A DNA stretch of 64,000 nt, from NCBI GenBank assembly GCA_015068645.1, contig SVKD01000004.1, positions 3,054 to 67,053 on the forward strand. The letters are read 5' to 3'. Of the stretch, positions 2,919 to 59,567 are shown piece after piece. Positions within the stretch are counted from its first letter, which is position 1, and the number at the start of each line of letters is the position of its first letter. The notes beneath the pieces are model-generated. The model was not told the origin of the DNA, searched no databases, and was given only the letters and a program-made list of their open reading frames with translations. Source of the stretch: Oscillospiraceae bacterium. GTDB lineage: Bacteria > Bacillota > Clostridia > UMGS1840. Made by a program: the position numbers and the translations under genes.

Positions 2919-3470
2919 ATGAAAAATATGAACACCAAAGTATTTTTGTTGTCACTGACTTCATTTCGTGAAAAATATCCTGATGCTACCAAACGGGAAA
3001 TTGAAAAAATAGCCGGTGATTATGCCCTCAGAAAAGTTTTTTCCGATTTATTTGATGTAAGAGAATTTAAAATCAACCGTGACGGAAAACCCGCTATCAA
3101 GGATAGTCCGTATCATTTCAATCTTTCCCATAGCGGTGATTGGTTATTGTTGGCGGTGGGAGATGCTCCCGTGGGTGCAGATATTGAAAAAATCACCAGA
3201 ATCCGCCCGAAAACGATGGAAAAGTATTTTACGAAATCGGAACAAGAGAGAGTAAAGAAAAACGGTACCAAGGCGTTTTTTGAACTCTGGTGCCAAAAAG
3301 AAAGTTATGTGAAATACACAGGCGAAGGAATCAAAGCCTTATCCAAAGAATCCAAAGATTTGATTTATCCCGAAGGTATTGCTTTCTTTTCTAAAAAATT
3401 TGAAGATTATCAAATCTCGGTTTGTACCGACAAAGAGGATTTACCGAGCAAAATTGAAATATTGCAATAA
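2919..3470 (+). CDS. 4'-phosphopantetheinyl transferase, Sfp type
   Basis: 183 aa with FNLSHSGDW, GADIE and WCQKESYVKYTGEG motifs. Its ATG directly abuts the galT TAA. Confidence 0.8.
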   Translation: MKNMNTKVFLLSLTSFREKYPDATKREIEKIAGDYALRKVFSDLFDVREFKINRDGKPAIKDSPYHFNLSHSGDWLLLAVGDAPVGADIEKITRIRPKTMEKYFTKSEQERVKKNGTKAFFELWCQKESYVKYTGEGIKALSKESKDLIYPEGIAFFSKKFEDYQISVCTDKEDLPSKIEILQ

Positions 3471-5267: not shown

Positions 5268-7265
5268 CTATTTCACCTGGAATTTTTCGTAATCCTCCTG
5301 AACTTCCTCCTGACCGTCTTGGAAGTATTCTGCGATAACTTCTCTTGCAGCAGGAGCAATAGAGTTCCCGTGGGCACCATGTTCTACTACAACGGAAATA
5401 GCAATCTGAGGATTATCATACGGCGCAAAGGCAACAAACAGACCATTATTGGTGCCCGGCACTTCTGCTGTACCTGTTTTACCGCCTACCGGAATAGAGA
5501 AATCTGTAAAGGTGCTGCTGGCGGTACCGTCTTCGGTAACGGAACGCATACCTTCCATAATTGCCGTATAGTTTTCCGGTTGAATGGAAATGGTATCCAA
5601 AGCAGTGGGATGAATTTCCTTAATCTCACCGGTAGCACGGTCTTTGATTCGATAGAGCAGGTGTGTTTCATATCTGGTTCCGCCGTTTACCACGGTAGCA
5701 ATATAGTTAGAAAGTTGCAGAGGGGTGTACAGATTATCAGATTGACCGATGGATGCTTGCAGTACATCCCCTGGATACCAGGGTTCATCAATTTTTTTAC
5801 GGTATTCGGGACCTGCCACAATTCCTTTTTCTTCGCCGGGAATTTCGATACCGGTGTATTCACCCAAGCCAACTTTTTTGGCATATTCGTTGAGCTTTTC
5901 AATACCAAGTTTGCGGCCCATTTCGTAAAAATAATAGTTACAGGATACTTTGATGGCATCCGATACATTTACATATCCGTGATTTGCAGGATACACATGA
6001 CAGGTGGGTTGATAATCTTTAAAGTATGTGTATTTCCCCAGGTCTTGCACATATTCACCGGGGGAAGCAATATTTTCTTCTAAAATTGCCAAAGAGGTCA
6101 GAATTTTAAAGGTGGAGCCGGGAGCATAGGTTCCTGAAATTGCACGGTTCCAGAATGGTTTTAAAGGATTGCTGTAATTTTGAGCATAATCTTTTTGGAA
6201 ATTGGAAAGGTCGTAATCCGGATAGGATGCCATTGCCAATACTTCACCGGTATGCACATCCACCACGGTAATAGCTCCACCGCCAATATCGGAAATGCTG
6301 TTTCCCAGTTCTGCGATAATATTTTCCAAAGCTTCTTCTGCTGTTTTTTGCAGGTCCAGATCGATAGTTAAAATCAGGTCATTTCCGGGAACTGCATTTT
6401 GCAGAACGTCTGTTTGCGTGATTTTTCCATATTCATTCTGTTCTATTTTTACAATACCGTCTTTCCCTTTTAATTCCAGATCGTAAACTTTTTCAATGCC
6501 TTCTTTACCGATAATATCAGTGAAGCCGTAACCTAAGTCTTTCAGCTCATCATATTCTTCCTTGTAAATCAAACCAACACGGCCCAGCAGATGAGGAGCA
6601 ACCGCCTCCGGATACAATCTGTCGTAAGACGTTACGATATTGGCACCGGGATAGCTTCGGTCATTTTCTTTAATGATGGTTACCACATTCATATTTACAT
6701 TTTTTGCAAATATATAGGGGTTATTCTGAGAGAATTCTCTTTGTTCCATTTCTGAGCGGACTGCAACCATTTTTCTCAGATATTCCGCAGGGATATCTGA
6801 CGGGAGCTGATAACGCTTAGTTAATTCTTTCATACATTTTTCTGCAGAGATATCTTCAGGAAGCTCCAGATTTGAGAAGAATGTTTTTAATTCATCAGCG
6901 GGCATGGTGTAGGTATAAGGAAGTTCAGAAATGGGCAAGTTGTCCACAAATTCCTGGTTTTCCCGTTCCATTAAACGAATCAGTTGATAAACGGTATCAT
7001 TCACCCATTTGGTATCTTTTTTGTATTGTGTGATTTCCACGTTGTAGGTAATCTGGCTGGATACCAGTACCCGACCATAACGGTCTAATATTTCGCCTCG
7101 TTGTGCTTTTAGAGGCATGGTTTTTACCATGCGCTTCATAGAATCCTGAACGTATTCTTCGCCGTTAATAATCTGTAACGAGAACAGACGAAATACGATA
7201 AAAAGCAAAAATACAACTGCAATTACAAGGATAACTGCAATGCGGGAAAACAGATCTTTTTTCAT
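5268..7265 (-). CDS. mrdA: penicillin-binding protein 2 (elongation transpeptidase)
   Basis: 665 aa with an N-terminal TM segment and STFK, SCN and KTGTAE motifs. Follows mreBCD. Confidence 0.9.
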   Translation of the reverse strand: MKKDLFSRIAVILVIAVVFLLFIVFRLFSLQIINGEEYVQDSMKRMVKTMPLKAQRGEILDRYGRVLVSSQITYNVEITQYKKDTKWVNDTVYQLIRLMERENQEFVDNLPISELPYTYTMPADELKTFFSNLELPEDISAEKCMKELTKRYQLPSDIPAEYLRKMVAVRSEMEQREFSQNNPYIFAKNVNMNVVTIIKENDRSYPGANIVTSYDRLYPEAVAPHLLGRVGLIYKEEYDELKDLGYGFTDIIGKEGIEKVYDLELKGKDGIVKIEQNEYGKITQTDVLQNAVPGNDLILTIDLDLQKTAEEALENIIAELGNSISDIGGGAITVVDVHTGEVLAMASYPDYDLSNFQKDYAQNYSNPLKPFWNRAISGTYAPGSTFKILTSLAILEENIASPGEYVQDLGKYTYFKDYQPTCHVYPANHGYVNVSDAIKVSCNYYFYEMGRKLGIEKLNEYAKKVGLGEYTGIEIPGEEKGIVAGPEYRKKIDEPWYPGDVLQASIGQSDNLYTPLQLSNYIATVVNGGTRYETHLLYRIKDRATGEIKEIHPTALDTISIQPENYTAIMEGMRSVTEDGTASSTFTDFSIPVGGKTGTAEVPGTNNGLFVAFAPYDNPQIAISVVVEHGAHGNSIAPAAREVIAEYFQDGQEEVQEDYEKFQVK

Positions 7266-7771
7266 ATGCGAAACACACTCCTGTGTTTTTTACGATTTCG
7301 CTTCTGAACAAGGTGCATCAAAAGGAACATCGCAAAATTATAAACAAATTCCAGCAGGGCAGTGCGGTAGAGTAACACCCAGAAATTTCCTTCAAAAAGG
7401 GAGGTGAAAAGCGCATAGCACAGGGAATATAACAAGCAAGCTATCAATCCGTAAATAGCTTCTAAAACAAAGTTTTCGGAAAATGCACCGTGGTACAGTT
7501 CACGAATACCTAATGCAGTTAGTACCAACAGCGTTGTGTGAATGCCAAAAAAACGGCCGGATACACAGTCTGAGAAAAAGCCGAGAATAATAGCAGACCA
7601 TAGGGAATAGCCGGATTCTTTATGGAAAGAAAGGGCCAGCACAAACGCAAACACAAAATCGGGTGCTACCCCAAGAATACGAATTCTGTCAGCAAAAATA
7701 AGCTGTAACAAAAAGATTGCAGCTGCTAAGAAATATTTTTTTATTAAGTTTAAAAATTCCGGCTGAAACAT
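7262..7771 (-). CDS. mreD: rod shape-determining protein MreD
   Basis: 169-aa polytopic membrane protein immediately after mreC. Overlaps the mrdA start. Confidence 0.8.
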   Translation of the reverse strand: MFQPEFLNLIKKYFLAAAIFLLQLIFADRIRILGVAPDFVFAFVLALSFHKESGYSLWSAIILGFFSDCVSGRFFGIHTTLLVLTALGIRELYHGAFSENFVLEAIYGLIACLLYSLCYALFTSLFEGNFWVLLYRTALLEFVYNFAMFLLMHLVQKRNRKKHRSVFRI

Positions 7772-14079: not shown

Positions 14080-14121
14080 GATTATAACAACTTTTTTGCG
14101 TGAACAAGGAGATTTTTGGTT

Positions 14122-16302
14122 ATGAGCATTTCCTATATTTCCAAAGAACAAATTTTTCATTTGCAGACTCCCAACACCAGTTATGTATTGGGCGTTTTAG
14201 ACGGTAAACATTTGCTTCATTTATATTATGGAAAACGGATTGATGAATACACATCTATTTTAGATAATTTCCCCATTGCAGGGGAGTTGGCATTTTCGCC
14301 CATTGATGTTCCTGAACATTTTATGAGCACCAATATGCTTCCTATGGAATATCCTTGCTACGGCAGTGCAGACTTTCGTTCTCCTGCATTCCACGCAGAA
14401 TATGAAGACGGAAGCTCCGTTACCTGTTTTGAATACGAATGCTATGAGATTTTTAAAGGCAAAAAGAAGCTGGAAGGACTGCCTGCCACCTACGTGGAAA
14501 ATGACAGCGAAGCAGAGACGCTGGAAATCACTCTTTGTGACCGTTTGACCGGCGTAAAAGTGATACTCTCTTACACTGTTTTTAATCAAGTGGATGCCAT
14601 TGCCAAAAGCGTTCGTGTGCAAAATGACGGGAATGGGGTTGTTACCTTAAAAAGTGTGCTTTCTTCCACCATTCATCTGTTTGATAAAAATTATGAGTTT
14701 GTGCATTTGGAAGGTGCTTGGGCAAAAGAGAGAAGTATCCAGAAAAGACCGCTGTTAAACGGTTGTATGCAAATTGACAGTAAACGTGTGACCTCAAGCC
14801 ACCATCACAGTCCCTTTGTGGCGTTGGCTCGTCCTTATGCCACCGAAACACAGGGAGATGTGTACGGTTTTAGCTTCGTGTATAGCGGAAACCACATCGA
14901 GCAGGTGGAAGTAAACGAATTTGACACCGCCAGAGTGAATGTGGGTATCAATCCGTTCGGCTTCTCCTGGCAGCTTACTCCTAATGCCGAATTTCAGACC
15001 CCCGAAGTGGTGTTAACCTACTCCGATTGCGGCTTCGGCAAAATGTCAAGAACTTATCATAAACTGTACCGTACCCGTCTGGTTCGCGGGAAATACAGAG
15101 ACGAACAGCGCCCTGTGTTAATCAATAACTGGGAAGCAACCTATTTTGATTTCAACGAAGAAAAAATCTTAAAAATCGCATCCAAAGCACAGTCTGTGGG
15201 TATTGACTTAATGGTGCTTGACGATGGTTGGTTCGGCAAACGAAATTCCGATAACTGTTCCTTGGGGGATTGGGTGGTTGACACAAATAAATTGCCCGAC
15301 GGTATCGAAAGCTTAGCAACCAAAGTCAACGAAATGGGAATGAAGTTTGGTCTTTGGTTTGAGCCCGAAATGATTTCAGAAGACAGTGACTTATACAGAG
15401 CCCATCCTGATTGGTGTATTCACATTGAAGGAAGAAAATGTACCCCGGCAAGAAATCAGTTGATGCTGGATTTAACCAGAGAAGAAATCCGTGATTATAT
15501 TGTGGATGCGGTATGTTCTGTGCTGAAATCCGCACCCATTTCCTATGTAAAATGGGATATGAACCGAAATGCCACCGAGCTTGGTTCCAAATCCTTACCG
15601 CCCCAGCGTCAGCAGGAATTTGCACACCGCTATGTGTTGGGCATTTATGAAGTGATGGAACGAATCACCTCCGCATTCCCCGATGTGTTATTTGAAGGAT
15701 GCTCCGGCGGTGGCGGACGTTTTGATGCCGGTATGCTTTACTATTATCCCCAGTACTGGACCAGCGACAACACCGACGGGGTGGAACGTCTCTCTATCCA
15801 GCACGGCACTTCTATGGTGATGCCTGCTTCCACTATGGGAGCACACATTTCTGCTGTTCCCAATCATCAGGTAGGAAGAACCACACCTCTTACGTTCCGT
15901 GGTCACGTTGCGATGGCAGGTCAGTTCGGTTACGAATTGGATTTAAACACCTTATCCGATGAGGAAATCGAAATCGTAAAAGAACAGGTGAAACTGTATA
16001 AAGATATTCGTGATATCGTTCAGAGAGGGGAGCTCTACCGTCTGGCAAGTCCCTTTGAAGGAAACAATACCTCCTGGGAATATGTGCACGAAGACAGAGT
16101 TGTCCTCACTTATTATACCATCCGTGCGAGAAGCACCACAGGGAAAACCAATGTGAAACTTTGCGGTTTGGATGAAACCGCAAAATATACGGAAACAACC
16201 GGCGGTAAAACCTACAGCGGTTCTTACCTGATGAATGTGGGCCTTTATTTTGAAGATAAAAAAGATTATTCTTCCACTATGTTGATTTTCCAAAAACAAT
16301 AA
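14122..16302 (+). CDS. aga: alpha-galactosidase, GH36
   Basis: About 726 aa. KWDMNR and CSGGGGRFD motifs. ATG 14122 is preferred over TTG 14116 (AAGGAG lies 11 nt upstream). Confidence 0.9.
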   Translation: MSISYISKEQIFHLQTPNTSYVLGVLDGKHLLHLYYGKRIDEYTSILDNFPIAGELAFSPIDVPEHFMSTNMLPMEYPCYGSADFRSPAFHAEYEDGSSVTCFEYECYEIFKGKKKLEGLPATYVENDSEAETLEITLCDRLTGVKVILSYTVFNQVDAIAKSVRVQNDGNGVVTLKSVLSSTIHLFDKNYEFVHLEGAWAKERSIQKRPLLNGCMQIDSKRVTSSHHHSPFVALARPYATETQGDVYGFSFVYSGNHIEQVEVNEFDTARVNVGINPFGFSWQLTPNAEFQTPEVVLTYSDCGFGKMSRTYHKLYRTRLVRGKYRDEQRPVLINNWEATYFDFNEEKILKIASKAQSVGIDLMVLDDGWFGKRNSDNCSLGDWVVDTNKLPDGIESLATKVNEMGMKFGLWFEPEMISEDSDLYRAHPDWCIHIEGRKCTPARNQLMLDLTREEIRDYIVDAVCSVLKSAPISYVKWDMNRNATELGSKSLPPQRQQEFAHRYVLGIYEVMERITSAFPDVLFEGCSGGGGRFDAGMLYYYPQYWTSDNTDGVERLSIQHGTSMVMPASTMGAHISAVPNHQVGRTTPLTFRGHVAMAGQFGYELDLNTLSDEEIEIVKEQVKLYKDIRDIVQRGELYRLASPFEGNNTSWEYVHEDRVVLTYYTIRARSTTGKTNVKLCGLDETAKYTETTGGKTYSGSYLMNVGLYFEDKKDYSSTMLIFQKQ

Positions 16303-16322: not shown

Positions 16323-16357
16323 AAAAAATGCTGACCAATTTGATCAGCATTTTTTTA
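16323..16357 (+). terminator. intrinsic terminator of aga
   Basis: ATGCTGA-9 nt-TCAGCAT followed by TTTTTT. Confidence 0.75.
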
Positions 16358-16428
16358 TTGTGAATACAACAAGGTTCCGGGGCACCCGACCGCAATCTTT
16401 GATTGCGTCATCGGGTCGGGTTCTTATT
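16355..16428 (+). repeat. terminator-associated 64-nt structured repeat, copy 1 (core 16360-16423 flanked by TTATT)
   Basis: Core GTGAATACAACAAGGTTCCGGGGCACCCGACCGCAATCTTTGATTGCGTCATCGGGTCGGGTTC. Near-identical copies at 56233-56296 (+) and 59445-59508 (-). Confidence 0.9.
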
Positions 16429-17141
16429 TATTTGTTCTTCACAATATCTTTTATCACTTCGCCGGCGATAATTAGTCCTGCAACCGATGGTACAAAGGCA
16501 ACACTTCCGGGTGCTTTTCGTCCGGTGGTTCCCTTGTCTTCAGCGGAAGCATCATATAAAGGAGTGAGCGGTTCTTCTTTGGAATACACCACTTTTAAAT
16601 GGTCGATTTTTCGTTTCCGAAGCTCTTGGCGCATCACTCTTGCCAAAGGACAAACCGAGGTTTTGGAAATATCGGTCACTTCCAACTTTGTGGGATCTAA
16701 TTTGTTGCCCGTTCCCATAGAAGAAATGATGGGGATATTTAATTTGTGTGCCGTTTCAATTAAATGAAGCTTTGCTGTCACCGTGTCGATGGCATCTACG
16801 ATATAGTCGATGCCCGAAAAATCAAAGTCGGTTTCAGGCAGATAAAATTCAGTTTTTAAATGCACTTTGGCATCGGGGTTAATGGATAAAATCCGTTCTT
16901 TTGATACTTCGGTTTTATACTGTCCCACGGTATCCTGGGTGGCAATCAGCTGACGGTTTAAATTGGTGAGAGAAACGGTATCGTTATCCACCAAAGTAAA
17001 GGTGCCAACACCGCTTCGGCATAATGCTTCCACCGTGTAGGAACCCACTCCGCCCAAGCCAAATACTGACACGTGTGCTTTTTTTAGTTTTTCTACCCCT
17101 TCTTTTCCAAGAAGAAGTTCTGTACGGGAGAATTGGTTCAT
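16428..17141 (-). CDS. tcdA: tRNA threonylcarbamoyladenosine dehydratase (ThiF/E1-like)
   Basis: 237 aa. Rossmann motif GLGGVGS and TcdA-like length and sequence. Confidence 0.85.
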   Translation of the reverse strand: MNQFSRTELLLGKEGVEKLKKAHVSVFGLGGVGSYTVEALCRSGVGTFTLVDNDTVSLTNLNRQLIATQDTVGQYKTEVSKERILSINPDAKVHLKTEFYLPETDFDFSGIDYIVDAIDTVTAKLHLIETAHKLNIPIISSMGTGNKLDPTKLEVTDISKTSVCPLARVMRQELRKRKIDHLKVVYSKEEPLTPLYDASAEDKGTTGRKAPGSVAFVPSVAGLIIAGEVIKDIVKNK

Positions 17142-20192: not shown

Positions 20193-20283
20193 TGGCGGAG
20201 AGAGAGGGATTCGAACCCTCGGTTGGGGTTAACCAACACACACTTTCCAGGCGTGCGCCTTAGACCAGCTCAGCCATCTCTCC
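20193..20283 (-). tRNA. tRNA-Ser (anticodon GGA), class II with long variable arm, CCA encoded
   Basis: Reverse complement reads GGAGAGA..CACGC-CTGGAAA-GTGTG..GAGGG-TTCGAAT-CCCTC-TCTCTCC-G-CCA. The cloverleaf was folded by hand. Confidence 0.9.
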
Positions 20284-20319
20284 ATAAGTTTATTCGGTTG
20301 TATCTCGAACACCTAAAAT

Positions 20320-20348
20320 ATATTAACAGAAAAATAATCAAATGTCAA
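20320..20348 (-). promoter_or_regulatory. promoter of tRNA-Ser
   Basis: On the minus strand: TTGACA, 17 nt, TAATAT, about 30 nt upstream of the tRNA 5' end. Confidence 0.6.
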
Positions 20349-20396
20349 GCTTTTTTTATAAAATTTTTAAAAAATTCTGAAAAAATAAAAATACAG

Positions 20397-20438
20397 AAAA
20401 GCGGTCTTCTGTAATTTTTTGGTAGGAGACCGCTTTTC
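20397..20438 (-). terminator. terminator closing the phage-packaging-like operon
   Basis: AGCGGTCT/AGACCGCT stem. On the minus strand it is followed by TTTTCTGTATTTTT. Confidence 0.75.
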
Positions 20439-20445
20439 AAAGATT

Positions 20446-20946
20446 TTATGAAATACTTGCTTGCAAAAGTGACGGTACTTTGTCATCAATAATTATGCCG
20501 AACAAACTTTCCGTCATTTTAATTAGCCCTGTTTTTTTATAACGGGAAATGGAACTGATGCTGAATGCAAAATGATCTGCCGTGTCTTCGATGGTATGTT
20601 CTTCTACATAGTAATACTGAAGAATTTCTCTGATGGTATCGTTAGGGATGTTTTGCATTGCATAGGTGATTTTATGAAACAGATGTTCCGCACGAGCGAT
20701 GGAAGCTTCTGTTTTTTCGATATAAGTATCGTACTCCTGCTCAAAATTTCCTTTGGATTTTTTTAAAAAGGAAATAATGGCAGTTTTTTTGTCGGTTTTA
20801 CGGGCAATTTTGGAAAATTCCAAAATATCTTTTTTTGCACTGCTAATATAATTTTCCAATGTTCGCACACTTTTTAACATTCTTTTTGTACGTTGCAGAT
20901 ACGGTTTTGCCTCACGGTATGTAAATATTTCATTCATTACTTTCAA
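20446..20946 (-). CDS. phage late-transcription activator-like protein (RinA/ArpU/sigma-70 region-4-like HTH)
   Basis: 166 aa. C-terminal IREILQYYYVEEHTIEDTADHFAFSISSISRYKKTGLIKM resembles a sigma region-4 HTH. Confidence 0.5.
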   Translation of the reverse strand: MKVMNEIFTYREAKPYLQRTKRMLKSVRTLENYISSAKKDILEFSKIARKTDKKTAIISFLKKSKGNFEQEYDTYIEKTEASIARAEHLFHKITYAMQNIPNDTIREILQYYYVEEHTIEDTADHFAFSISSISRYKKTGLIKMTESLFGIIIDDKVPSLLQASIS

Positions 20947-21328
20947 TCCTTTCTTTCATATGGTTATCGGATTCTTTTAATTCGGAAAGCACGGATTCGG
21001 CCAATGTAATTAAACGTTCCCGAAGTACTTTATCCGATAAATTCATCTCCTGACTTTCTTCTTTCGGTTCAGTTTTCGTTTTCAAAAGATAGGTTACAAA
21101 TGAATGGTTGAACCGTTTCGTCAGGGCACCGGCAATGAGCCTTGCATACACGGTGTCTCTGGCAAATTCCAGGGTATCTCTTAGTTTCTTATGTTTTTTG
21201 GCAAGGGCGTCCGCTTGTTTTGTGCTAAGGCCGTATTGCACGAAGAACTCGTCTAACACAATGTGATCTTCGTCCCTCAGCCATTCCAATAAGGCATCTG
21301 CCAAAGAACTTACGGAGAGCTTTTGCAT
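20930..21328 (-). CDS. terminase small subunit-like protein
   Basis: 132 aa. N-terminal HTH-like FFVQYGLSTKQADALAKK, then ARLIAGALTKRFNHSFVTYLLK, typical of TerS. 17-nt overlap with the next gene. Confidence 0.5.
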   Translation of the reverse strand: MQKLSVSSLADALLEWLRDEDHIVLDEFFVQYGLSTKQADALAKKHKKLRDTLEFARDTVYARLIAGALTKRFNHSFVTYLLKTKTEPKEESQEMNLSDKVLRERLITLAESVLSELKESDNHMKERIESNE

Positions 21329-21582
21329 TTGGATTTTCTCTCCTTTCGGCGATAATACTGATGCACTTTCTGAAGTTTTTCGGTAAGCTCCTCTTTTTCC
21401 AAAGTGAGCCGTCTTCTTTTTGCCATCAGTGCGATAATGCTTTCATCATACACGGTGATGGAGAGTAAATCACATAAAATTCGGGCAGTAGGGAGGGGGA
21501 GTTTGTAGTTTTCTTCCGCTACCGTCAGACGGATGATATCGCCTTCACGGTACGCCTCCACACTTGGTTCTCTAAAAGGCAC
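21310..21582 (-). CDS. hypothetical 90-aa protein with a basic C-terminus
   Basis: The ORF overlaps both the TerL stop and the TerS-like start, suggesting translational coupling. No recognisable motif. Confidence 0.5.
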   Translation of the reverse strand: MPFREPSVEAYREGDIIRLTVAEENYKLPLPTARILCDLLSITVYDESIIALMAKRRRLTLEKEELTEKLQKVHQYYRRKERKSKCKSSP

Positions 21583-22936
21583 GGCGAACGCCTCCTTTCC
21601 GTCCGGGTGACCACACTTTTTTTATTGGCGTTTTTTCACGGATTGACATCACATAGTAGCGAAGTTCATCTAAAGCATGGTCATCTTTCTTATACGGTTG
21701 ATCACTACCCGGCTGAAAACGGTACCCTTTGATTTCCCGAATCAAATTGGGACAATTTGCAAAGATGTAAAGTCCTGCTTTTCCGTCGGGATAAAGCTCT
21801 TTATCAGGATGGGAACGAATTTTTAAAGCTTCCCGTACCTGCTCAATGCCAACCCATTTGGATTTTTCCACCTTGCTGTTTACCAAAATTTTATGACGGT
21901 AAAACAAGTCAGACACGCTTTTATCTGATGCCAGGGTTTTCTGGTCGGCAGCACTGTCAATTAAGGCATGAAGATTGCCGTTTGGGTCGGTGTTCCAACC
22001 AAGTTCTTTTGCAATCTGATGAATTTCACGGGCGTGTTCTTCCACACTTTTTCCACTTTCGTAATGCTCGCGGATGACGTAAATGGTTCCGTCGGGATCA
22101 CGGGCATAAAAATGGCAGGAAGTTGGCGCATAAAATCCGGGGTCGATACTAATGTTATCGTACCATTCTTTTGGCACATCAAACGGGTCAATTACATGAA
22201 TATTTTCCCGAAATTCCTTGTAAACCAACCCTGATTTTGCCACAAACCTTCCGTACTGACGTGCTTCGCGTTCTTCTTCGGTCAATGATTCTTTCATATA
22301 TTCAATTTCTGACGGATGAAGATAAGGATTATCTTCCCATTGCATAAAAAATGTTTTAATGCCGTTGTCGTTTCGCTCATTTAAATAAATTTGCTCATAC
22401 ACCCAGCTTAAGCCGGAGAGGGGAGTCATGGTGCCCCACATTACACCCATGGTATCTACCACTCTCATCCGGCACTCGTCAAAAATTTCTTTGGGAGGTT
22501 CTTCGTCGAACCACACAAAATCAAGGCTTGTCCCTTGAAATTTGGCACGTCCCTGTTCACAGACCTTGAATCCAATCACGCTGTCTCCACCCGACTGAGA
22601 TTTCACCACAATAAAATCCAAAATAGCATTTTTCGGGTCATCTGCTTCACCACGGCGTGCCACAATTTTTTTAATCCAGGATGGTTCCAGCCACCTTAGA
22701 ATTTCTTTTTGTGCCACATCTCTTTGCACCTCGTTGGTCAAAGAAACCACCCATCCTTTCATTGGCTTGGAAATGGTGCGATAAGGATGGTTGCCTCGGG
22801 CAAACCAAACGGTTTCCACTGCCCCTGCTACTGTTTTTCCTGTACGGTTTCCACCGAAAACCCAACGGATACGGGATTGGTCTTTGTGAAATTCTATTTG
22901 CTTTTTATGGAGTCTCACATCGGTCAGGTAGGGCAT
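21572..22936 (-). CDS. phage terminase large subunit (TerL)
   Basis: 454 aa. Walker A GGNRTGKT and Walker B LDFVWFDEE. RNaseH-like nuclease half with SIDPGF, LIDSAA and DDHALDELRY. Confidence 0.88.
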   Translation of the reverse strand: MPYLTDVRLHKKQIEFHKDQSRIRWVFGGNRTGKTVAGAVETVWFARGNHPYRTISKPMKGWVVSLTNEVQRDVAQKEILRWLEPSWIKKIVARRGEADDPKNAILDFIVVKSQSGGDSVIGFKVCEQGRAKFQGTSLDFVWFDEEPPKEIFDECRMRVVDTMGVMWGTMTPLSGLSWVYEQIYLNERNDNGIKTFFMQWEDNPYLHPSEIEYMKESLTEEEREARQYGRFVAKSGLVYKEFRENIHVIDPFDVPKEWYDNISIDPGFYAPTSCHFYARDPDGTIYVIREHYESGKSVEEHAREIHQIAKELGWNTDPNGNLHALIDSAADQKTLASDKSVSDLFYRHKILVNSKVEKSKWVGIEQVREALKIRSHPDKELYPDGKAGLYIFANCPNLIREIKGYRFQPGSDQPYKKDDHALDELRYYVMSIREKTPIKKVWSPGRKGGVRRAF

Positions 22937-22998
22937 CTCATTATTATAATACCGTAGGCGACATTTGGTCAGCCGTCTGTTTCTCTCTTCCCAAAGAG

Positions 22999-23205
22999 CT
23001 AAGAATTGGGTAATGTCTTCGCGGATGTTTTTGATAATTTTGCCCCTCCTTTTTGAATTGCTTTCACACAGTTTTTACATAAAATAATCTTTCGTGACAG
23101 CGGTTCCTTTTCTTCTCCGAATAAATACTCGCCACGGTTTAAGCAGGTGGGAGTCTCACATTGCAGAACCAATTCACCACGATATTCTTTTAACACAATC
23201 GCCAA
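22999..23205 (-). CDS. small zinc-ribbon protein (TTG start)
   Basis: 68 aa. CETPTC...CKNC four-Cys arrangement. First gene after the LexA-box promoter. Confidence 0.5.
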   Translation of the reverse strand: MAIVLKEYRGELVLQCETPTCLNRGEYLFGEEKEPLSRKIILCKNCVKAIQKGGAKLSKTSAKTLPNS

Positions 23206-23861: not shown

Positions 23862-24818
23862 TTATTTTCCAATGATTTGATTAAAAAATGCATCGGTTTC
23901 TTGTGGGGTAGTTCCGGCAAACAGATAACGGAAAACATATCCGCTTTTCTGTGTCACAATCAGTTCTTTTTGGAATCCGTCTGTGCTGCTTAAAGTAACT
24001 GTGTTGTATTCTTCCGGATAATATTCCCCGAACCATTCTCCTGCCGGTGTATAAGTGGTAACTTCGAATGTATTGTCTGCAATCATTGTAACGCCGGTGA
24101 TGGTTTCATCCGGAAAAGCTTCTGATGCATAATATCCGGAAGAGATGGTGGAACCGTTAAATTTCAAAATTAAATAATAATACTGGTTTTGAGAAGGATC
24201 GACATCATATTCACATAACCAATTTCCCTGAAGTGCAGAAAGTAACTCTTCCGTTTTGATATTTGCAGATTGTTTGGTTGAAAGTTTCACAGTATTGGTA
24301 TTTGCATCCCAGTTAACGGATAATCCCAATGCATCGGAAACAGCTCTGACAGGTAGGTAAGTAGTTCCGTCGATAATAAAAGGTTCCACGTAAGTTCCAT
24401 TGGCATCAGTTGGAGTAATTTCTTGATTGTTCAGCGTGATTTTGATATTGTTATACCACAAATTTTTTTGAATGGAACCTGCGGGGAGCACATTTTTTGA
24501 AACACTTGTTGATATATCGTTTGAGGATTGTTCTGAAGATAATTTTACAGTATAGGTATTTGCGTCCCAGTCGACATGAATCCCTAATGCATTGGAAATA
24601 GCTCTGACAGGTAGGTACGTGGTTCCGTCGATAATAAAAGGTTCCACGTAAGTTCCATTGGCATCAGTTGGAGTGATTTCTTGATTGTCAAGAGTAATTT
24701 TAATGTTGTTATACCACAAATCTTTTTGAATTGTGCCAACGCTGGCAGATACACTTGTTGAAGAAATGATTGCGGATATCAGGGTTCCTAAGATTACTCT
24801 TTTCATGTTATGTTTCAT
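23862..24818 (-). CDS. secreted protein with two copper-amine-oxidase-N-terminal-like (stalk) domains plus a C-terminal domain
   Basis: 318 aa with a signal peptide. Duplicated block NNIKITL.NQEITPTDANGTYVEPFIIDGTTYLPVRA.S.ALG..V.WDANT.TVKL. Confidence 0.8.
   Translation of the reverse strand: MKHNMKRVILGTLISAIISSTSVSASVGTIQKDLWYNNIKITLDNQEITPTDANGTYVEPFIIDGTTYLPVRAISNALGIHVDWDANTYTVKLSSEQSSNDISTSVSKNVLPAGSIQKNLWYNNIKITLNNQEITPTDANGTYVEPFIIDGTTYLPVRAVSDALGLSVNWDANTNTVKLSTKQSANIKTEELLSALQGNWLCEYDVDPSQNQYYYLILKFNGSTISSGYYASEAFPDETITGVTMIADNTFEVTTYTPAGEWFGEYYPEEYNTVTLSSTDGFQKELIVTQKSGYVFRYLFAGTTPQETDAFFNQIIGK
24342..24688 (-). repeat. in-frame duplication inside the CDS (258-bp period; 89-nt cores match at 86 of 89)
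   Basis: 24342-24430 against 24600-24688 differ at 3 positions. Flanking homology is weaker. Confidence 0.85.
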
Positions 24819-29915: not shown

Positions 29916-30077
29916 GCGTACACCAGGTACGCGGCATTCGCTGAAAAGCACAATCTAAGCAATTTTTCTGCAACTTGTTGTGTAAGGAATTCGGCAGAAA
30001 CTATCAAAGCGTACCGATCTTGAAAAGTACGCGGCGTTCGCTGAAAAGCACAATCTGAGCAATTTTTCTGCAACTTG
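29916..30077 (+). repeat. 100-bp-period tandem duplication in the ruvA-ruvB spacer
   Basis: The 51-nt core GTACGCGGC(A/G)TTCGCTGAAAAGCACAATCT(A/G)AGCAATTTTTCTGCAACTTG lies at 29927-29977 and 30027-30077 (49 of 51). Each copy is preceded by GCGTAC, forming a GCGTAC-loop-GTACGC hairpin. Confidence 0.9.
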
Positions 30078-53143: not shown

Positions 53144-53187
53144 GAAATTCTTGAAATTGTTTCATAAAATAACGAAGGAGTCAAGTG

Positions 53188-56184
53188 ATGGAGCATTTAA
53201 CCTCTCTTTTTCTTGCACAATCTTATAGTGACGCCTGGGAAACTTACAAAAGAAGCTTGAAAGCATCCAATGCTGTTTATTGGGATTATGTGATTTTAAC
53301 TGCATCCAATGAGCTTCAAGCGGAAGGTTACCGTTCTCAGTTAAAAGCCCGGGAAGATAGCGGATTTTTGCCAAAACATACCCATTTTGCAGTGATTCCT
53401 GATCCTGACGGAAAACGTGTGGGTAGCGGTGGTGCTACCTTAAGTGTCATTCGTTATATTGCAGAACATAGTGGGAATGTTGATTTTTCGGGACTTCGTA
53501 TCTTAGTCATTCATTCCGGAGGAGACAGTAAGAGAGTACCGCAGTATTCTGCTTTGGGCAAACTTTTTTCACCGGTTCCTAACTGTCTTCCCAATCAGAT
53601 GGCATCTACCTTGTTTGATGAATTTATGATGGTGATGTCTTCAGTTCCCGGCAGAATTCGTGAAGGAATGCTTTTGGCTTCCGGTGATGTTTTGCTATTA
53701 TTCAATCCTTTGCAGATTGATTATTCAGGTGTTGGTGCCTGTGCGATTTCTTTTAAAGAACCTGTGGAAACAGGAAAAAACCACGGTGTGTTTGTGCAAG
53801 GCGAAAATGGGAATGTTTCTGCCTTTTTGCATAAACAAAGTGTTGAAGACCTTACTAAAAAAAATGCAGTCAATGAAAAAGGTTGTGTAGATATTGATAC
53901 CGGTGCTGTGGTGTTTTCTGCAGAGATGCTTTCTTCTTTGTACAGCCTTATTTGTACCAACGGCATTTTTGATACTGATAAGTTCAATCAGTTTGTCAAT
54001 GAAAAAGTTCGCCTTTCTTTATATGGCGATTTCTTATATCCTTTGGCAGAAACTTCCACTTTAGATGCATTTTACAAAGAAAAACCTGAAGGGGAGTTCT
54101 GCGATGAACTAAAAACAGCAAGAGAGCAGGTATGGAGCGTGCTTCGTCCGTATCGAATGAAACTGCTCCGATTTGCACCTGCCAAATTTATTCACTTTGG
54201 CACTACTTCTGAAATTCTTCGTCTGATGTCTTCTGAAATTGATAAATATGATAATCTGGGATGGAGCCGTCAGGTCAACAGCAGTATTCCCCTAAGTGCA
54301 GCAGGATACACCAGTATTGTTTCCGACCAAGCGAACGTGGGGAAAGACTGTTATTTTGAACTGAGCCATATTCATAGCGGTGTAACGGTTGGGGATAACG
54401 TATTGTTATCTCACATTGAAGTGAAAGAAGGAAATATTCCTTCTAATGTTGTGCTGCACGGCTTAAAACAGCGTGACGGGAAATTTGTGGCACGTATCTA
54501 TGGTGTGTCTGATAATCCAAAACTATCGTTAGAGGATAACGCATCTTTGTGCGGTGTTCATTTGGCAGACTTTTTAGAAAAACTGAATCTTTCCCAGAAG
54601 GATTTGTGGGACAGTAATGACCATACTTTATGGAATGCGAAGCTTTATCCTGTTTGTGATACTATGGAAGAAGCAGTTTCTCACGCTTTGAATTTATACA
54701 ATCTTTGCTACGGAGCAGGAGATTTTACTCTTTGGAAAAACACCGAAAGAAAAAGTTTATCTGCCGGATTTTTTGATGCAGATGCAAATGCAATTATTGC
54801 TTGGAATAACCGTATGCGCGAACTGATGGTGATGGAAGGCATTGCAAAAGCTATCGCAGATGGCGTCAGTGCGGATGAAGTATGCCAGGCTTATCGTTTT
54901 CAACATTTAACCAAAATGCAGGAAGATTGGCTGAAAAACTATTTTAAAACAGCAGATTTTTCTGCAAAAATCAGACTGTATTATTATATTGGAAAAATTT
55001 TAGGCGAAACCTATGGTGATGAATATTTTTCCAAATGTTTTGGCTGTATTCGTGACACGATTTTGCAAAACAGTATGGATACTACCACCTACCACAGCGA
55101 ATGCAGAATTCAGATGGACACTCACACAGTTTCTTTGCCGCTCAGAGTAAACTTTGGCGGTGGCTGGAGTGATACTCCACCGTATTGTATTGAGCAGGGC
55201 GGTACAGTTTTCAATGCAGCAATTTTGTTAAACGGTAAAAAACCCGTGGAGGTAACGTTAAAACGGATTCCTGAATATAAAATCGTGCTGGAAAGCCGTG
55301 ATATGGATGTGCACGGAGAATTTACTTCACTCGATCCTCTTTTGGAAACAGGAAATCCCTATGATCCCTTTGCGTTGCAAAAAGCAGCACTTCTTGCTTG
55401 CGGCATTTTACCGAAAGAGGGCGGAAATCTTACCGATATTTTAAAACGGGCTGGTGGCGGCTTTGTGATGGATTCTGAGGTAACCGGTGTTCCCAAGGGG
55501 AGCGGACTGGGTACCAGCTCCATTTTATCAGCAGCTTGTGTGAAAGCCATTTACGAATTTTTTGGAATTTCTTATGATGATGCCAAACTTTATCAGAGCG
55601 TGCTTTGTGTGGAACAAATTATGTCCACGGGTGGCGGTTGGCAGGATCAGGTTGGCGGGGTGACAGATGGATTAAAATATATCACCACCAAGCCTGGTTT
55701 GCTTCAGGATATTCAAGTGGAATATGTGCCGTTAAAACCTGATATTTTAGCAAAGCTAAACCAACGGTTTGCATTGATTTATACCGGTCAGCGCCGATTG
55801 GCAAGAAATCTGTTACGAGAAGTTGTGGGAAGATATATCGGCAATATCCCTGAGGTTGTTTTTTCGCTATCTGAAATTCAGCTGGTTTCTCAAAAAATGA
55901 AAGATACTTTGCTGCTTGGTGATATTGATGCGTTTGCCAATTTAATGAATGAGCATTGGAATTTATCTAAACAAATTGATAGCGGAATTACCAATATTTT
56001 AATTGATCAGATTTTCTTATCTGTGGATGATCTGATTGATGCAAAACTGGTTTGCGGAGCAGGTGGCGGCGGCTTTTTGCAAGTGATTTTAAAAGAAGGA
56101 GTTACTCGTGAGCAGGTTCGCGACCGATTGAAGTCTGTGTTTGGAGACAGTGGTATTGATGTTTGGGATTGTACCATTATATAA
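53188..56184 (+). CDS. fkp: bifunctional L-fucokinase / fucose-1-phosphate guanylyltransferase (Fkp-like)
   Basis: About 998 aa. N-terminal FPGT-like region (WDYVILTASNE..Q..Y..QL, GSGGATL). C-terminal GHMP kinase (PKGSGLGTSSILSAA, GAGGGGF). ATG 53188 lies 7 nt after GAAGGAG. Confidence 0.8.
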   Translation: MEHLTSLFLAQSYSDAWETYKRSLKASNAVYWDYVILTASNELQAEGYRSQLKAREDSGFLPKHTHFAVIPDPDGKRVGSGGATLSVIRYIAEHSGNVDFSGLRILVIHSGGDSKRVPQYSALGKLFSPVPNCLPNQMASTLFDEFMMVMSSVPGRIREGMLLASGDVLLLFNPLQIDYSGVGACAISFKEPVETGKNHGVFVQGENGNVSAFLHKQSVEDLTKKNAVNEKGCVDIDTGAVVFSAEMLSSLYSLICTNGIFDTDKFNQFVNEKVRLSLYGDFLYPLAETSTLDAFYKEKPEGEFCDELKTAREQVWSVLRPYRMKLLRFAPAKFIHFGTTSEILRLMSSEIDKYDNLGWSRQVNSSIPLSAAGYTSIVSDQANVGKDCYFELSHIHSGVTVGDNVLLSHIEVKEGNIPSNVVLHGLKQRDGKFVARIYGVSDNPKLSLEDNASLCGVHLADFLEKLNLSQKDLWDSNDHTLWNAKLYPVCDTMEEAVSHALNLYNLCYGAGDFTLWKNTERKSLSAGFFDADANAIIAWNNRMRELMVMEGIAKAIADGVSADEVCQAYRFQHLTKMQEDWLKNYFKTADFSAKIRLYYYIGKILGETYGDEYFSKCFGCIRDTILQNSMDTTTYHSECRIQMDTHTVSLPLRVNFGGGWSDTPPYCIEQGGTVFNAAILLNGKKPVEVTLKRIPEYKIVLESRDMDVHGEFTSLDPLLETGNPYDPFALQKAALLACGILPKEGGNLTDILKRAGGGFVMDSEVTGVPKGSGLGTSSILSAACVKAIYEFFGISYDDAKLYQSVLCVEQIMSTGGGWQDQVGGVTDGLKYITTKPGLLQDIQVEYVPLKPDILAKLNQRFALIYTGQRRLARNLLREVVGRYIGNIPEVVFSLSEIQLVSQKMKDTLLLGDIDAFANLMNEHWNLSKQIDSGITNILIDQIFLSVDDLIDAKLVCGAGGGGFLQVILKEGVTREQVRDRLKSVFGDSGIDVWDCTII

Positions 56185-56187
56185 GTG

Positions 56188-56225
56188 AAAAAAGTAAGTC
56201 CTCTTATCGGGGACTTGCTTTTTTG
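56188..56225 (+). terminator. terminator after fkp
   Basis: AGTAAGTCC...GGACTTGCT stem followed by TTTTTT. Confidence 0.75.
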
Positions 56226-56227
56226 TC

Positions 56228-56301
56228 TTATTGTGAATACAACAAGGTTCCGGGACACCCGACCGCAATCTTTGATTGCGTTATCGGGTCGGGTTCTTAT
56301 T
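56228..56301 (+). repeat. terminator-associated 64-nt repeat, copy 2 (core 56233-56296)
   Basis: 62 of 64 identical to copy 1 (G24A, C50T). TTATT on both sides. Confidence 0.9.
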
Positions 56302-57343: not shown

Positions 57344-57380
57344 GCTTTAATAAAACCATCCCACGGAAGGGAGAATGTTT

Positions 57381-59354
57381 GTGAAGAAAGAACGTCTGTG
57401 GATATCGTCGCTGGTTATTTTTATGGCAACGTTAATTCTTTTGGGAAGCTTTTTTTGCAGAATCCAATATGAAAATAACAGCCGTCAGGCATTTATGTCC
57501 GTAGATATAAAAAATTTGGCGTCTCACGGGAAAGCTACCATATCGCATCTTCATCAATTAAAAGATGCAGGGGCTAATGTGGTTACTGTGGAGCCTCAGA
57601 CCATAAAAGGTCTGGAACAAGCCGGGAAGGTGGAACTGATTTCCTATTCTTCTCTTTTTGAGAAGGAAGATGCAAGATCCCAACAAATCATAACTGCTTT
57701 CGGTGACAATACCTATGAACAAGATCATTTCATGATTGTGGTGACCGATCCTCAAGTGCAGCATTATCTCAGTGAAGAACTTTCCTGTCGCTATGAGGAG
57801 TATACCAGCGTTTTGTTGGAAGATCAAACGACAATGGTATTTGTCATTCCAAAGTTTACCGGGGAAAATGATTTGGTTGTTGGGTATGATAAGCAGCAGT
57901 TGGAACTCATTTCGGAAGCTGATATGAGTTCTGCCTTGGTTTATCCGTCCTACACGTTTGAAAACCCTGCTTACACAAAGTATTTTGAGCGGTTTGTTAA
58001 GACTAATGATATTTCTTTTCTGGTTTTAAGAAACAATCCTTACGATAATGAAATCCCCCTGTCGGAAGAATTTAAAAACGTTTTCAGAAATCTGGACATA
58101 ACCTTGGTGGTCTGGGAAAATGAAAGTCAGATTGGAAACGAAACACCATTTTTATACGATGATTTCTTTTCGATTGCTAAGTATCGTACGCTGCGTGGTT
58201 TCCATATGGATAAATTGGTTGCCCACGATGAAAGCGGATATCGATACCGTTATTATCAGTGGTTTAACTCTGCTTTAGAAAGAAATACCAAATTTATCCA
58301 CGCCAATCTCCTGGAAAATCCCGATATGGATGCGGAAGCCAATTTTAAACTGACCTTACAGGCTATTTCGGATTTCAAAGCAGGACTTAGAAATTACGAT
58401 TTCCCAAAAACAGGAATCGATGTGCCTTATGTTTATCCCGTGCAGACGGCTTCTATGGCAGGCGGTCTGATGCTTTTGAGTTTGGCGTACCTGTATTTGG
58501 TGATTATTTTACGAAAAATCCCCCGTCTATTTACCGAAATTTATTTTATATTGATGGTGACAGTTGCCATTCTATCGTACGCATTTGCCGATTTTTTAGC
58601 AGGACTGTATGCCTTTGGTATTATGGTGATGGCATCTGCTGTGATTAGCGCTTTGCTGTTGTATCTGGAGAAAAACGGAAAAGGAAAGAGGAAATATCTT
58701 TGGATGATTCTTTCCTCCCTTGCAATTACCGTTTCGGGAATCGTTTCCATTAGCTCTTTGTTGGGCGGAATTGAATTCTACACGTCAACCAAGCTGTTTC
58801 ACGGCACCGTGCTCAGTATGCTCTTACCTTTTGCTTTTGCGGTATTCAACGGATATATGATTTATTTATATGATAGTTGCCCCGTTGGAAAAATTTCTTC
58901 CGTTATTGGGAATTGGTGTAAGAAGGGGAGAATTTTTATTTTTCTTCCCATTATAATTGCCGCAGTGGTAGGATTTTTATATTACTGCACCAGAATCGGC
59001 AATTACGAACAGTTAATTCCCTTAGAAGACCACTTCAGAAAATGGCTGACTGATGTTTTCTATGTTCGCCCCAGAACCAAGGAATTTTTATTTGGATATC
59101 CGTTACTGGCTTTGTTCTATTATTGTTCGGCGATAAAAACAAAAATTGAATGGAAGTTGATTTTCGGTATCGGCGCAACCGTTTTGTTTAATTCCATTTT
59201 CAACACATTCTGCCATACTTTTACCGCAGTAACAGTCAGCATTCACCGTGTATATAACGGTTTTTTATGCGGATTTTTAGTTTCTTTTATTGTGATAGTT
59301 TTTCTGTTGCTGATTCGTTATGTGATTGTAATTCTTAGAACCAAGAAGAATTAA
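57381..59354 (+). CDS. large membrane protein: N-terminal TM, about 330-aa extracytoplasmic domain, C-terminal multi-TM domain (possibly DUF5693-like)
   Basis: ORF 57375..59354. GTG 57381 (MKKERLW) is better spaced from GGGAG. The family assignment is from memory only. Confidence 0.55.
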   Translation: MKKERLWISSLVIFMATLILLGSFFCRIQYENNSRQAFMSVDIKNLASHGKATISHLHQLKDAGANVVTVEPQTIKGLEQAGKVELISYSSLFEKEDARSQQIITAFGDNTYEQDHFMIVVTDPQVQHYLSEELSCRYEEYTSVLLEDQTTMVFVIPKFTGENDLVVGYDKQQLELISEADMSSALVYPSYTFENPAYTKYFERFVKTNDISFLVLRNNPYDNEIPLSEEFKNVFRNLDITLVVWENESQIGNETPFLYDDFFSIAKYRTLRGFHMDKLVAHDESGYRYRYYQWFNSALERNTKFIHANLLENPDMDAEANFKLTLQAISDFKAGLRNYDFPKTGIDVPYVYPVQTASMAGGLMLLSLAYLYLVIILRKIPRLFTEIYFILMVTVAILSYAFADFLAGLYAFGIMVMASAVISALLLYLEKNGKGKRKYLWMILSSLAITVSGIVSISSLLGGIEFYTSTKLFHGTVLSMLLPFAFAVFNGYMIYLYDSCPVGKISSVIGNWCKKGRIFIFLPIIIAAVVGFLYYCTRIGNYEQLIPLEDHFRKWLTDVFYVRPRTKEFLFGYPLLALFYYCSAIKTKIEWKLIFGIGATVLFNSIFNTFCHTFTAVTVSIHRVYNGFLCGFLVSFIVIVFLLLIRYVIVILRTKKN

Positions 59355-59439: not shown

Positions 59440-59513
59440 AATAAGAACCAGACCCGATGACGCAATCAAAGATTGCGGTCGGGTGCCCCGGAACCTTGTT
59501 GTATTCACAATAA
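59440..59513 (-). repeat. terminator-associated 64-nt repeat, copy 3 (core 59445-59508, inverted)
   Basis: 63 of 64 identical to copy 1 (G59T, which weakens the outer stem). TTATT on both sides. Its GTGAATAC end abuts hairpin 59516-59545. Confidence 0.9.
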
Positions 59514-59567
59514 AAACAACAAGATCGCTTGCAATCTTGTTTGTTGCTTTAAAATATAGGAAAACTA

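Follow-up and report, generated by a model that had tools for sequence, protein, structure and literature searches.

Why does one short stretch of DNA recur, almost unchanged, at three places in a bacterial chromosome, each time immediately behind a different transcription terminator? The question is raised by a 64,000-nucleotide (nt) stretch of an Oscillospiraceae bacterium (contig SVKD01000004.1, positions 3,054 to 67,053 of the forward strand), here called the window, in which a first-pass annotation had marked a structured 64-nt core at 16360-16423 (+), 56233-56296 (+), and 59445-59508 (-). The three near-identical copies were confirmed by core matching, with zero matches expected by chance (100 shuffles), and by a covariance model derived from 48 distinct family members, which finds exactly three sites in the window (Table 1) and nothing above 15 bits outside them (best score 14 bits). 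The 69-nt sequence of copy 1 recurs unchanged at two of the loci collected from other sequence records (L004 and L010; collected loci are cited by L numbers). We tentatively suggest, rating the proposal at somewhat less than an even chance, that the three copies represent a family of non-autonomous mobile elements, non-coding and 66-74 nt long, which would be moved in trans by an enzyme encoded elsewhere. The annotation had listed a terminator-targeting non-autonomous element among its candidates; the fixed site choice, the spread of copies, the arrays, and the decayed copies described below speak for that candidate, while the 5-bp target duplication that accompanied it has not survived.

Target site and orientation

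Whatever the genome, the element points its 5′ end at a hairpin, and these hairpins are unrelated to one another in sequence; the orientation is fixed, and insertion directly 3′ of unrelated terminators, first noticed for the three copies in the window, holds in dozens of genomes. When one fixed rule was applied to occupied sites (the genome loci and the window) and to unoccupied sites from the same DNA, a hairpin ended at most 12 nt upstream of 31 of the 33 occupied sites, vs. 50 of the 249 unoccupied intergenic TTTTA sites (p = 4e-17), so that the TTTTA motif and an intergenic location alone cannot explain the association with hairpins. On the left, positions -7 to -2 are rich in T and -1 is an A in 44 of 45 sites, and the right end reads T, T, A, followed by T and T, in 50, 49, 49, 51, and 46 of 56 sites, respectively. 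Targets consist of a hairpin followed by a T-run and TTA|TT, within which the breakpoint cannot be placed.

Each copy in the window lies 3′ of a hairpin and T-run, as the annotation had stated, and by consensus scan and folding the three hairpins are terminator-like and mutually unrelated. The hairpin in front of copy 1, which is also present in the relatives L063 and L064, is symmetrical, being bordered by an A-run at one foot and a T-run at the opposite one, and is therefore bidirectional, which accounts for its minus-strand call in the consensus scan. Upstream of the copy 3 hairpin there is no minus-strand gene, a point on which the earlier account needs correction; this hairpin probably terminates the plus-strand DUF5693 gene and acts in both directions, which would place the reverse complement of the element in the 3′ untranslated region (UTR) of that gene.

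The TTATT described as bracketing the element is present on both sides of all three copies, and sequence logos extend it as a junction motif to the whole family. Its interpretation as a 5-bp target duplication fails: where the left core is TCA, CTA, TGA, or ATA, the right end is TTA all the same in 8 of 9 loci, the exception being L030, which has CTA at both junctions. Since the left variants are not mirrored on the right, the right-hand TTATT is either the element's own or a fixed requirement of the target, and not a duplication. The junctions also bear on conservative site-specific recombination across the TTATT core by a tyrosine, serine, or DEDD (IS110-like) recombinase, in which the core would be common to a circular junction ...GGGTTCTTA|TTGTG... 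and to the terminator tail. TTATT at both junctions throughout the family, the paired CTA of L030, the single TTATT between array units, and the lack of a strand bias (see below) would all suit such recombination. We consider it quite unlikely nonetheless, as the right core is still TTA in 8 of the 9 loci with a variant left core, the right flank is unconserved beyond TT, whereas targets of the IS110 type have both sides specified, the need for a hairpin unrelated in sequence goes unexplained, and no recombinase gene was found nearby.

An ordinary MITE (miniature inverted-repeat transposable element) moved by a DDE transposase would likewise be small, intergenic, and present in many copies, and some IS5-family elements make 3-bp TNA duplications, which the TTA at the flank calls to mind. 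The triplets on the two sides do not duplicate each other, however, and the strict single orientation relative to the hairpin would be unexpected for such an element. Moreover, when the 3′ end is reverse-complemented and set against the 5′ end, only 2 of 16 positions agree, in accord with the annotation, which had seen no terminal inverted repeats (TIRs). The missing TIRs and target-site duplications (TSDs) effectively refute this explanation.

The element usually sits between two convergent genes. The convergent open reading frame (ORF) stops at the terminal TTA itself (read as TAA) in 11 of 39 copies and at the next triplet in 6 of 39; in 23 of 39 its stop codon lies at most 11 nt away. Because the element ends in the five bases of its target, the right-hand gene keeps its last bases and its stop codon, and the resemblance of the 3′ end (hairpin-TTCTTA) to the target explains the head-to-tail arrays described below.

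Structure of the element

Comparison of the 48 distinct members shows that the annotated 64 nt are the core of a longer natural unit, which measures 69 nt in the window and 66-74 nt in the family and runs from TTGYG to GGGTTCTTA (TTG...TTCTTA). Its extreme 5′ end forms a small hairpin of 4-5 bp (TTGY/RCAA), absent from the annotation, whose closing pair (7-15 in alignment A4) is most often U-A (34 members), otherwise C-G (10) or U-G (1). The apparent invariance of the motif CAACAAGGTTCCGGGG is partly an artifact, since both collection scans required it, and the motif varies in the distant L116 copies.

The large bulged hairpin pairs TCCG with CGGG, ACCCGA with TCGGGT, and CGCAATC with GATTGCG; its loop is TTT, and it is interrupted by bulges of one base and of 3 nt, the latter variable (16408-16410 in copy 1). 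Covariation backs this register and not the ACCCGACC/GGTCGGGT pairing proposed earlier: in the family alignment 96.5% of the cells are paired, compensatory changes occur at 6 pairs, and pair 39-64 is found as A-U, C-G, U-A, and G-C across members. None of 500 shuffles reached the observed pairing values, and slid registers drop to 32-46% paired. RNAalifold returns the same large hairpin, and in a copy from Acetoanaerobium (see below) an outer-helix G-C is swapped to C-G.

On the forward strand the G+C-rich hairpin followed by TTCTTATT is terminator-like. Members differ by indels, which bears out the earlier statement that no reading frame is conserved. A mechanically called 135-residue ORF with a GTG start (16360-16767, +), which begins in copy 1 and runs antisense through the ThiF-family gene, is an artifact of an open frame across the element. 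Mismatches of the G-T and A-C kinds are balanced (12 vs. 14), so that RNA and single-stranded DNA, or the two strands, cannot be told apart from the mismatch data. The scan called no promoter-like site in or beside the element; an outward promoter (TTGATT-17-TCTTAT) was considered and rejected on its missing -11 A and the absence of a scan call, and likenesses to parS, the integron attC core, the tRNA T-arm, and group II domain V were rejected on reading the sequence. In line with the annotation, which could assign the element to no RNA family it knew, no Rfam family matches: at gathering scores the whole window yields two tRNAs only, a permissive scan near copy 1 gives only sub-threshold, terminator-driven matches, and permissive scans around L063, L111, and L077 give nothing relevant.

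Size and distribution of the family

An exact 21-mer scan, with one genome per species, collected 36 loci in 20 metagenome-assembled genomes (MAGs) of uncultured Clostridia, with at most 11 copies per MAG; the MAGs bear the labels Acutalibacteraceae, Oscillospiraceae, or Eubacteriales and derive from the guts of ruminants, deer, and humans. A second scan, which left out the canonical base after GGGG, added approximately 33 true metagenome loci of other subfamilies, mainly from the human gut. A dozen 16-mer CAACAAGGTTCCGGGG matches in soil metagenomes were rejected as chance (Table 1), as CAACAAGGTTCCGGGG is one coding of the RpiB/LacAB motif (A)NKVPG (rpiB). Phage records hold no copies of the element, viral contigs hold one decayed copy, and the plasmid collection holds a single site (62.6 bits) in a 2.63-Mb replicon of an isolate of Acetoanaerobium noterae (order Peptostreptococcales). 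This record, entered as plasmid pTPELB2, is evidently the chromosome; its site (L122; NZ_CP154629.1, 2428100-2428225) lies behind a terminator and combines one complete copy with a tandem copy that has lost internal sequence, and a convergent gene there takes its stop codon from the terminal TTA. A multi-copy non-coding family, as first proposed from the window, is thus borne out by 20 MAGs, approximately 33 metagenome loci, and one isolate, with no match in Rfam.

Copies within a genome are almost identical and form a subfamily peculiar to that genome. Head-to-tail arrays are frequent and contain from 2 to at least 4 units with a single TTA between units, and 14 of 91 copies are preceded by another copy. 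An array of three units in L111 opens with a 178-nt variant (7170-7345, reverse strand) whose apical loop holds an insert of 113 nt, structured and non-coding, showing that the loop can carry cargo. The tandem arrays, the deleted copies, and the presence or absence of the element between related species point to proliferation.

A separate observation concerns a human-gut species (L077, 1600-1995), in which the element lies downstream of a transfer-messenger RNA (tmRNA) gene and two terminator hairpins; after only approximately 25 nt it is followed by the ribosome-binding site of a gene in the same orientation, for which no promoter is visible.

Gain, loss, and conservation

The element is present or absent between related species. 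Among relatives whose ThiF protein is 88-94% identical, L062, L065, and L066 have other terminators and lack the element. In L064 the same hairpin and gene pair are found with 38 nt vs. the 125 nt of the window, and the body of the element is missing. This locus was rejected as a clean empty site, given that its junction has diverged, that it retains TTGAAATA, which is like the first bases of the element, and that the ThiF stop codon is gone. Two loci with a 96% identical FucU protein (L058 and L059) have no element downstream of the DUF5693 gene; these and L057, at the same identity and also lacking the element, were rejected as true empty sites, their intergenic DNA being unalignable. The comparison with relatives that the annotation had proposed accordingly yielded presence and absence between related species and further copies elsewhere, while a clean empty site was not found.

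Two of these relatives' loci have features of their own. In L063 (~3223-3383, reverse strand; GCA_045631485.1 JAZQUU010000019) the hairpin is kept and an unrelated insert of approximately 160 nt stands in the element's place; the insert has no Rfam match, is single-copy among the loci collected, and is entered by the ThiF ORF. In L058 (6140-6200) and L059 (2740-2800) a conserved leader-like sequence (…AAGACCTTGTTTTAAGGGGTGAATTCCCATGGG…), absent from the window spacer, lies upstream of the 614/662-residue gene that follows DUF5693.

Four orthologous locus pairs, from different species or alleles, were compared together with 300-nt flanks on each side, which are mostly coding. The orthologous copies differ at 8 of 274 positions vs. 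557 of 2403 in the flanks (Fisher p = 1e-19), and thus evolve approximately eight times more slowly, with the differences falling in loops and the bulge. In L004/L015 and L008/L021 the upstream terminator hairpin has diverged beyond recognition and the element is kept. This slow evolution may reflect either purifying selection on resident copies or their re-occupation or conversion from the active pool of the genome, and the genome-specific subfamilies would fit the latter.

If selection were the cause, the element might be a structured module useful to the host, RNA or DNA site, that moved long ago or moves only incidentally. Such a module might back up leaky terminators as a one-way terminator or insulator, or serve directly after stop codons as a 3′-UTR hairpin or protein-binding site. 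The conservation just described, confined as the changes are to loops and bulge, would suit such a module, as would the two hairpins kept paired through compensatory changes, the terminator-like hairpin and TTCTTATT on the forward strand, the position of the reverse complement in a 3′ UTR right after a convergent stop codon in about half of the copies, and the fixation of the window's three copies in every strain-level contig. Against it, there is no promoter-like site in or beside the element, its neighbors are unrelated housekeeping genes in all orientations, Rfam has no match, and the 12 vs. 14 mismatches mark neither strand as RNA. Arrays, deleted copies, and near-identical subfamilies specific to a genome resemble proliferation rather than regulation, and turnover or gene conversion among copies could also slow evolution. 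We regard a host module as unlikely.

A possible mechanism of movement

The copies show integration in a single orientation, directly 3′ of a TTA (read TTA|TT) that closes the T-run of an intrinsic terminator, behind its G+C-rich hairpin. Movement in trans, which we favor, would proceed as follows. The likeliest chemistry would be the cutting and joining of single DNA strands through an HUH/Y1-type transposase, as for the palindrome-associated transposable elements (PATEs) derived from the insertion sequences (ISs) of the IS200/IS605 family and for repetitive extragenic palindromic (REP) sequences with their REP-associated tyrosine transposases (RAYTs). We infer this chemistry from the lack of TIRs and TSDs, the insertion 3′ of a motif that is also present at the right end, the dependence on a hairpin, and the spacing of the cut sites. 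The enzyme would bind the large hairpin and cut approximately 18-26 nt 5′ of its foot on the left and 6-10 nt 3′ of it on the right, and a terminator hairpin followed by T's and TTA would be recognized by mimicking the element's own right end.

A number of results weigh against this proposal. No transposase, RAYT, reverse transcriptase, or recombinase domain was found by Pfam in the approximately 60 ORFs of the window, and ORF clustering in 8-kb stretches revealed no partner gene that recurs near 40 copies, the ORFs shared around them being only paralogues of ABC transporter, AraC, GFO/IDH, and aminoacyl-tRNA synthetase genes. Nor did the collected loci, plasmids, or phages hold a full-length element with both ends around coding DNA; a screen of the collected loci for copies with a left or a right end only returned truncated copies and the 178-nt variant of L111. 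All strain-level contigs with an identical ThiF or FucU protein carry all three window copies, without polymorphism, and the predicted empty site of copy 1 had 0 matches in the metagenome scan. The sole near-empty orthologous site, L064, may have arisen by deletion and not be an ancestral empty site, to judge from its junction. The slow evolution of orthologous copies would be unexpected if they were inert. As a rough proxy from short loci, GC skew is positive on the element strand in 20 of 34 loci (p = 0.39), and the element agrees with the gene-strand majority in 19 of 34 (p = 0.61), so that no replication-strand bias was seen, in contrast to the lagging-strand bias of IS200/IS605. Elements of that family also have two similar end hairpins, whereas here one is large and the other tiny, and they are unrelated in sequence; and recognition of a target hairpin of unrelated sequence is foreign to the known IS200/IS605 mechanism, whereas the target of this element adjoins a foreign hairpin.

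The lack of strand bias would also be compatible with the element being a passenger, in the manner of short interspersed nuclear elements (SINEs), moving through an RNA intermediate by means of terminator-recognizing machinery of the class C (IIC) group II intron type, a rival we hold to be very unlikely. The target behavior is the same, downstream of an inverted repeat and then T's in sense orientation (PMC1702495). There is likewise no target duplication, and the element would be transcribed through terminator read-through. On the other hand, 69 nt are too few for the ribozyme domains, the 5′ end is (TT)GTGAA or GCGAA and not GUGYG, no Rfam group II intron matches, no reverse transcriptase gene is found in the window or beside copies, and we know of no mini group II element that is mobilized in trans.

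A further possibility, which we would call unlikely, is that the element homes to terminators and is of a kind not described before. An enzyme or ribonucleoprotein would read terminator hairpins by their shape and insert a harmless 69-nt cassette at TTA|TT, and hosts would then keep the cassette under selection as a 3′-end module. The cassette would restore the stop codon and last bases of the neighboring gene and add a hairpin to it.

Genomic context in the window

The window is a housekeeping stretch of chromosome, with mreBCD, ruvABC, relA, alaS, secDF, tgt, queA, and sporulation genes, and its host is a spore-forming Clostridia bacterium. The features of the element and its immediate neighbors are collected in Table 1. 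Away from the copies, an ORF for a phage-type large terminase (21572-22936, -) and small ORFs without a Pfam match (20446-21582) lie beside tRNA-Ser (20193-20283), and the region 20193-23000 is probably a prophage or satellite remnant integrated at this tRNA gene. The ruvA-ruvB spacer contains two 51-nt direct repeats (29927-29977 and 30027-30077) that are 96% identical and 100 nt apart, and an ORF at 23862-24818 holds a 212-nt repeat pair (24262-24473 and 24520-24731, 85% identical) that corresponds to repeated copper amine oxidase N-terminal-like domains.

Table 1. Features of the element, its targets, and its neighbors in the window, with lists of collected loci.
Feature	Position	Strand	Details
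Element copy 1	16358..16426	+	69 nt; starts TTGTGAATAC, ends GGGTTCTTA; covariance model 97.3 bits; core mismatches 0
Element copy 2	56231..56299	+	69 nt; covariance model 95.4 bits; core mismatches 2
Element copy 3	59442..59510	-	69 nt; covariance model 91.3 bits; core mismatches 1
Target hairpin of copy 1	16323..16355	.	bidirectional intrinsic terminator between convergent GH36 and ThiF-family genes; folded, terminator scan
Target hairpin and T-run of copy 2	56188..56224	+	16 pairs, T tail; terminator of fucose pyrophosphorylase/kinase gene
Target hairpin of copy 3	59518..59541	-	T-run on minus strand; consensus scan call
Left junction TTATT, copy 1	16355..16359	+	T-tail TTA, then the element's TT
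Small 5′ hairpin, copy 1	16358..16369	+	TTGT-GAAT-ACAA; first two T's common with left TTATT; alignment and DNA fold
Motif CAACAAGGTTCCGGGG	16367..16382	+	5′ of large hairpin and running into it; invariant in alignment A4
Large bulged hairpin, copy 1	16376..16420	+	helices 16376-16379/16417-16420, 16384-16389/16411-16416, 16391-16397/16401-16407
3′ tail TTCTTA plus TT	16421..16428	+	terminal TTA(TT) repeats target motif; ThiF-family stop codon next
Element ends			left TTGYG...CAACAAGGTTCCGGGG; right GGGTCGGGTTCTTATT
GH36 alpha-galactosidase gene	14116-16302	+	upstream side of copy 1
ThiF-family gene	16428-17141	-	convergent on copy 1; stop codon 16428-16430, starts 2 nt past element
Fucose pyrophosphorylase/kinase gene	53185-56184	+	precedes copy 2
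DUF5693 gene	57375-59354	+	copy 3 lies between this gene and its probable bidirectional terminator
Tandem-array loci			L003, L005, L117, L092, L095, L111, L074, L122
Decayed or internally deleted copies			L070, L086, L095, L120, L121
Chance-match loci			L076, L079, L082, L087, L089-L091, L093, L100, L108-L110

Significance

Few mobile elements are known to pick their target by the shape of a terminator hairpin and not by its sequence, class C group II introns being the classic example. A ribozyme-free DNA or RNA of 69 nt that does likewise would point to a second structure-guided integration machinery in the abundant uncultured Clostridia of the gut. As a parasite the element would be nearly neutral, landing where transcription has already ended and bringing with it a copy of the target motif, by which an overlapping stop codon is regenerated. 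If resident copies are truly under selection, this would be a terminator-linked domestication comparable to that of REPs in Proteobacteria. In practical terms, such repeats break MAG assemblies, create spurious ORFs (such as that at 16360-16767), and change 3′ UTRs and gene ends; the conserved 3′ tail together with the covariance model offers a route to their annotation.

Comparison with known systems

We found no terminator-targeting small repeat described in Clostridia in the literature, and the closest systems each share some features with the element. PATEs are non-coding IS200/IS605 derivatives moved in trans by a Y1 HUH TnpA, and IS200/IS605 elements have no TIRs or TSDs and insert 3′ of a tetra- or pentanucleotide (PMC3597680, PMC7290912). 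The element is like them in lacking TIRs and TSDs and in inserting 3′ of a short motif, here TTA or TTATT. In IS608 the left cleavage is 19 nt 5′ of a hairpin and the right 10 nt 3′, with a guide sequence 5′ of the hairpin foot (PMC3597680); a subterminal hairpin with a longer 5′ and a shorter 3′ linker is also seen here, at approximately 18-26 and 6-10 nt vs. 19 and 10 nt. In addition to the differences in end hairpins, strand bias, and target recognition given above, the element measures 66-74 nt, whereas a PATE example has 271 nt (PMC7290912), and no parent IS or tnpA was found in the window, beside copies, or in plasmids and phages.

REP sequences and their paired forms (REPINs) are short, multicopy, G+C-rich extragenic hairpins that frequently lie between convergent genes and within 3′ UTRs, with a sequence class specific to each genome, persistence at orthologous sites, and presumed HUH mobilization in trans (PMC3333891, PMC2817692, PMC3337134), and in all of these respects the element resembles them. 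It differs in having no GTAG-type 5′ tetranucleotide and no inverted pairs (as in REPINs or bacterial interspersed mosaic elements, BIMEs), its copies being single or head-to-tail, in its precise, single-orientation site choice at terminator tails, in its Clostridia hosts, and in that no RAYT gene was found in the 8-kb stretches around its copies.

Integron attC sites and ORF-less cassettes share a bulged hairpin recognized by structure, a length of 60-140 nt, a place right after stop codons, and the possibility of tandem arrangement. The element lacks RYYYAAC or GTTRRRY core sites, however, and its copies are dispersed at the terminators of housekeeping genes and not gathered into one array by an integrase. 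Correia, RUP, BOX, and other MITE-like repeats are also small and intergenic, may have terminator-like hairpins, and alter the 3′ ends of neighboring genes, but these have TIRs and TSDs or modular boxes and show no terminator-specific targeting.

A parallel in site choice is offered by class IIC introns, which home just downstream of an intrinsic-terminator stem-loop and its T's, in sense orientation and without duplication (PMC1702495). These introns, ribozymes of several hundred nt, begin with GUGYG, comprise domains I-VI, and usually contain an ORF for a reverse transcriptase; the element shares none of this. It is PATE- and REP-like in its make-up and like a class IIC intron in its choice of site, but lacks defining features of each.

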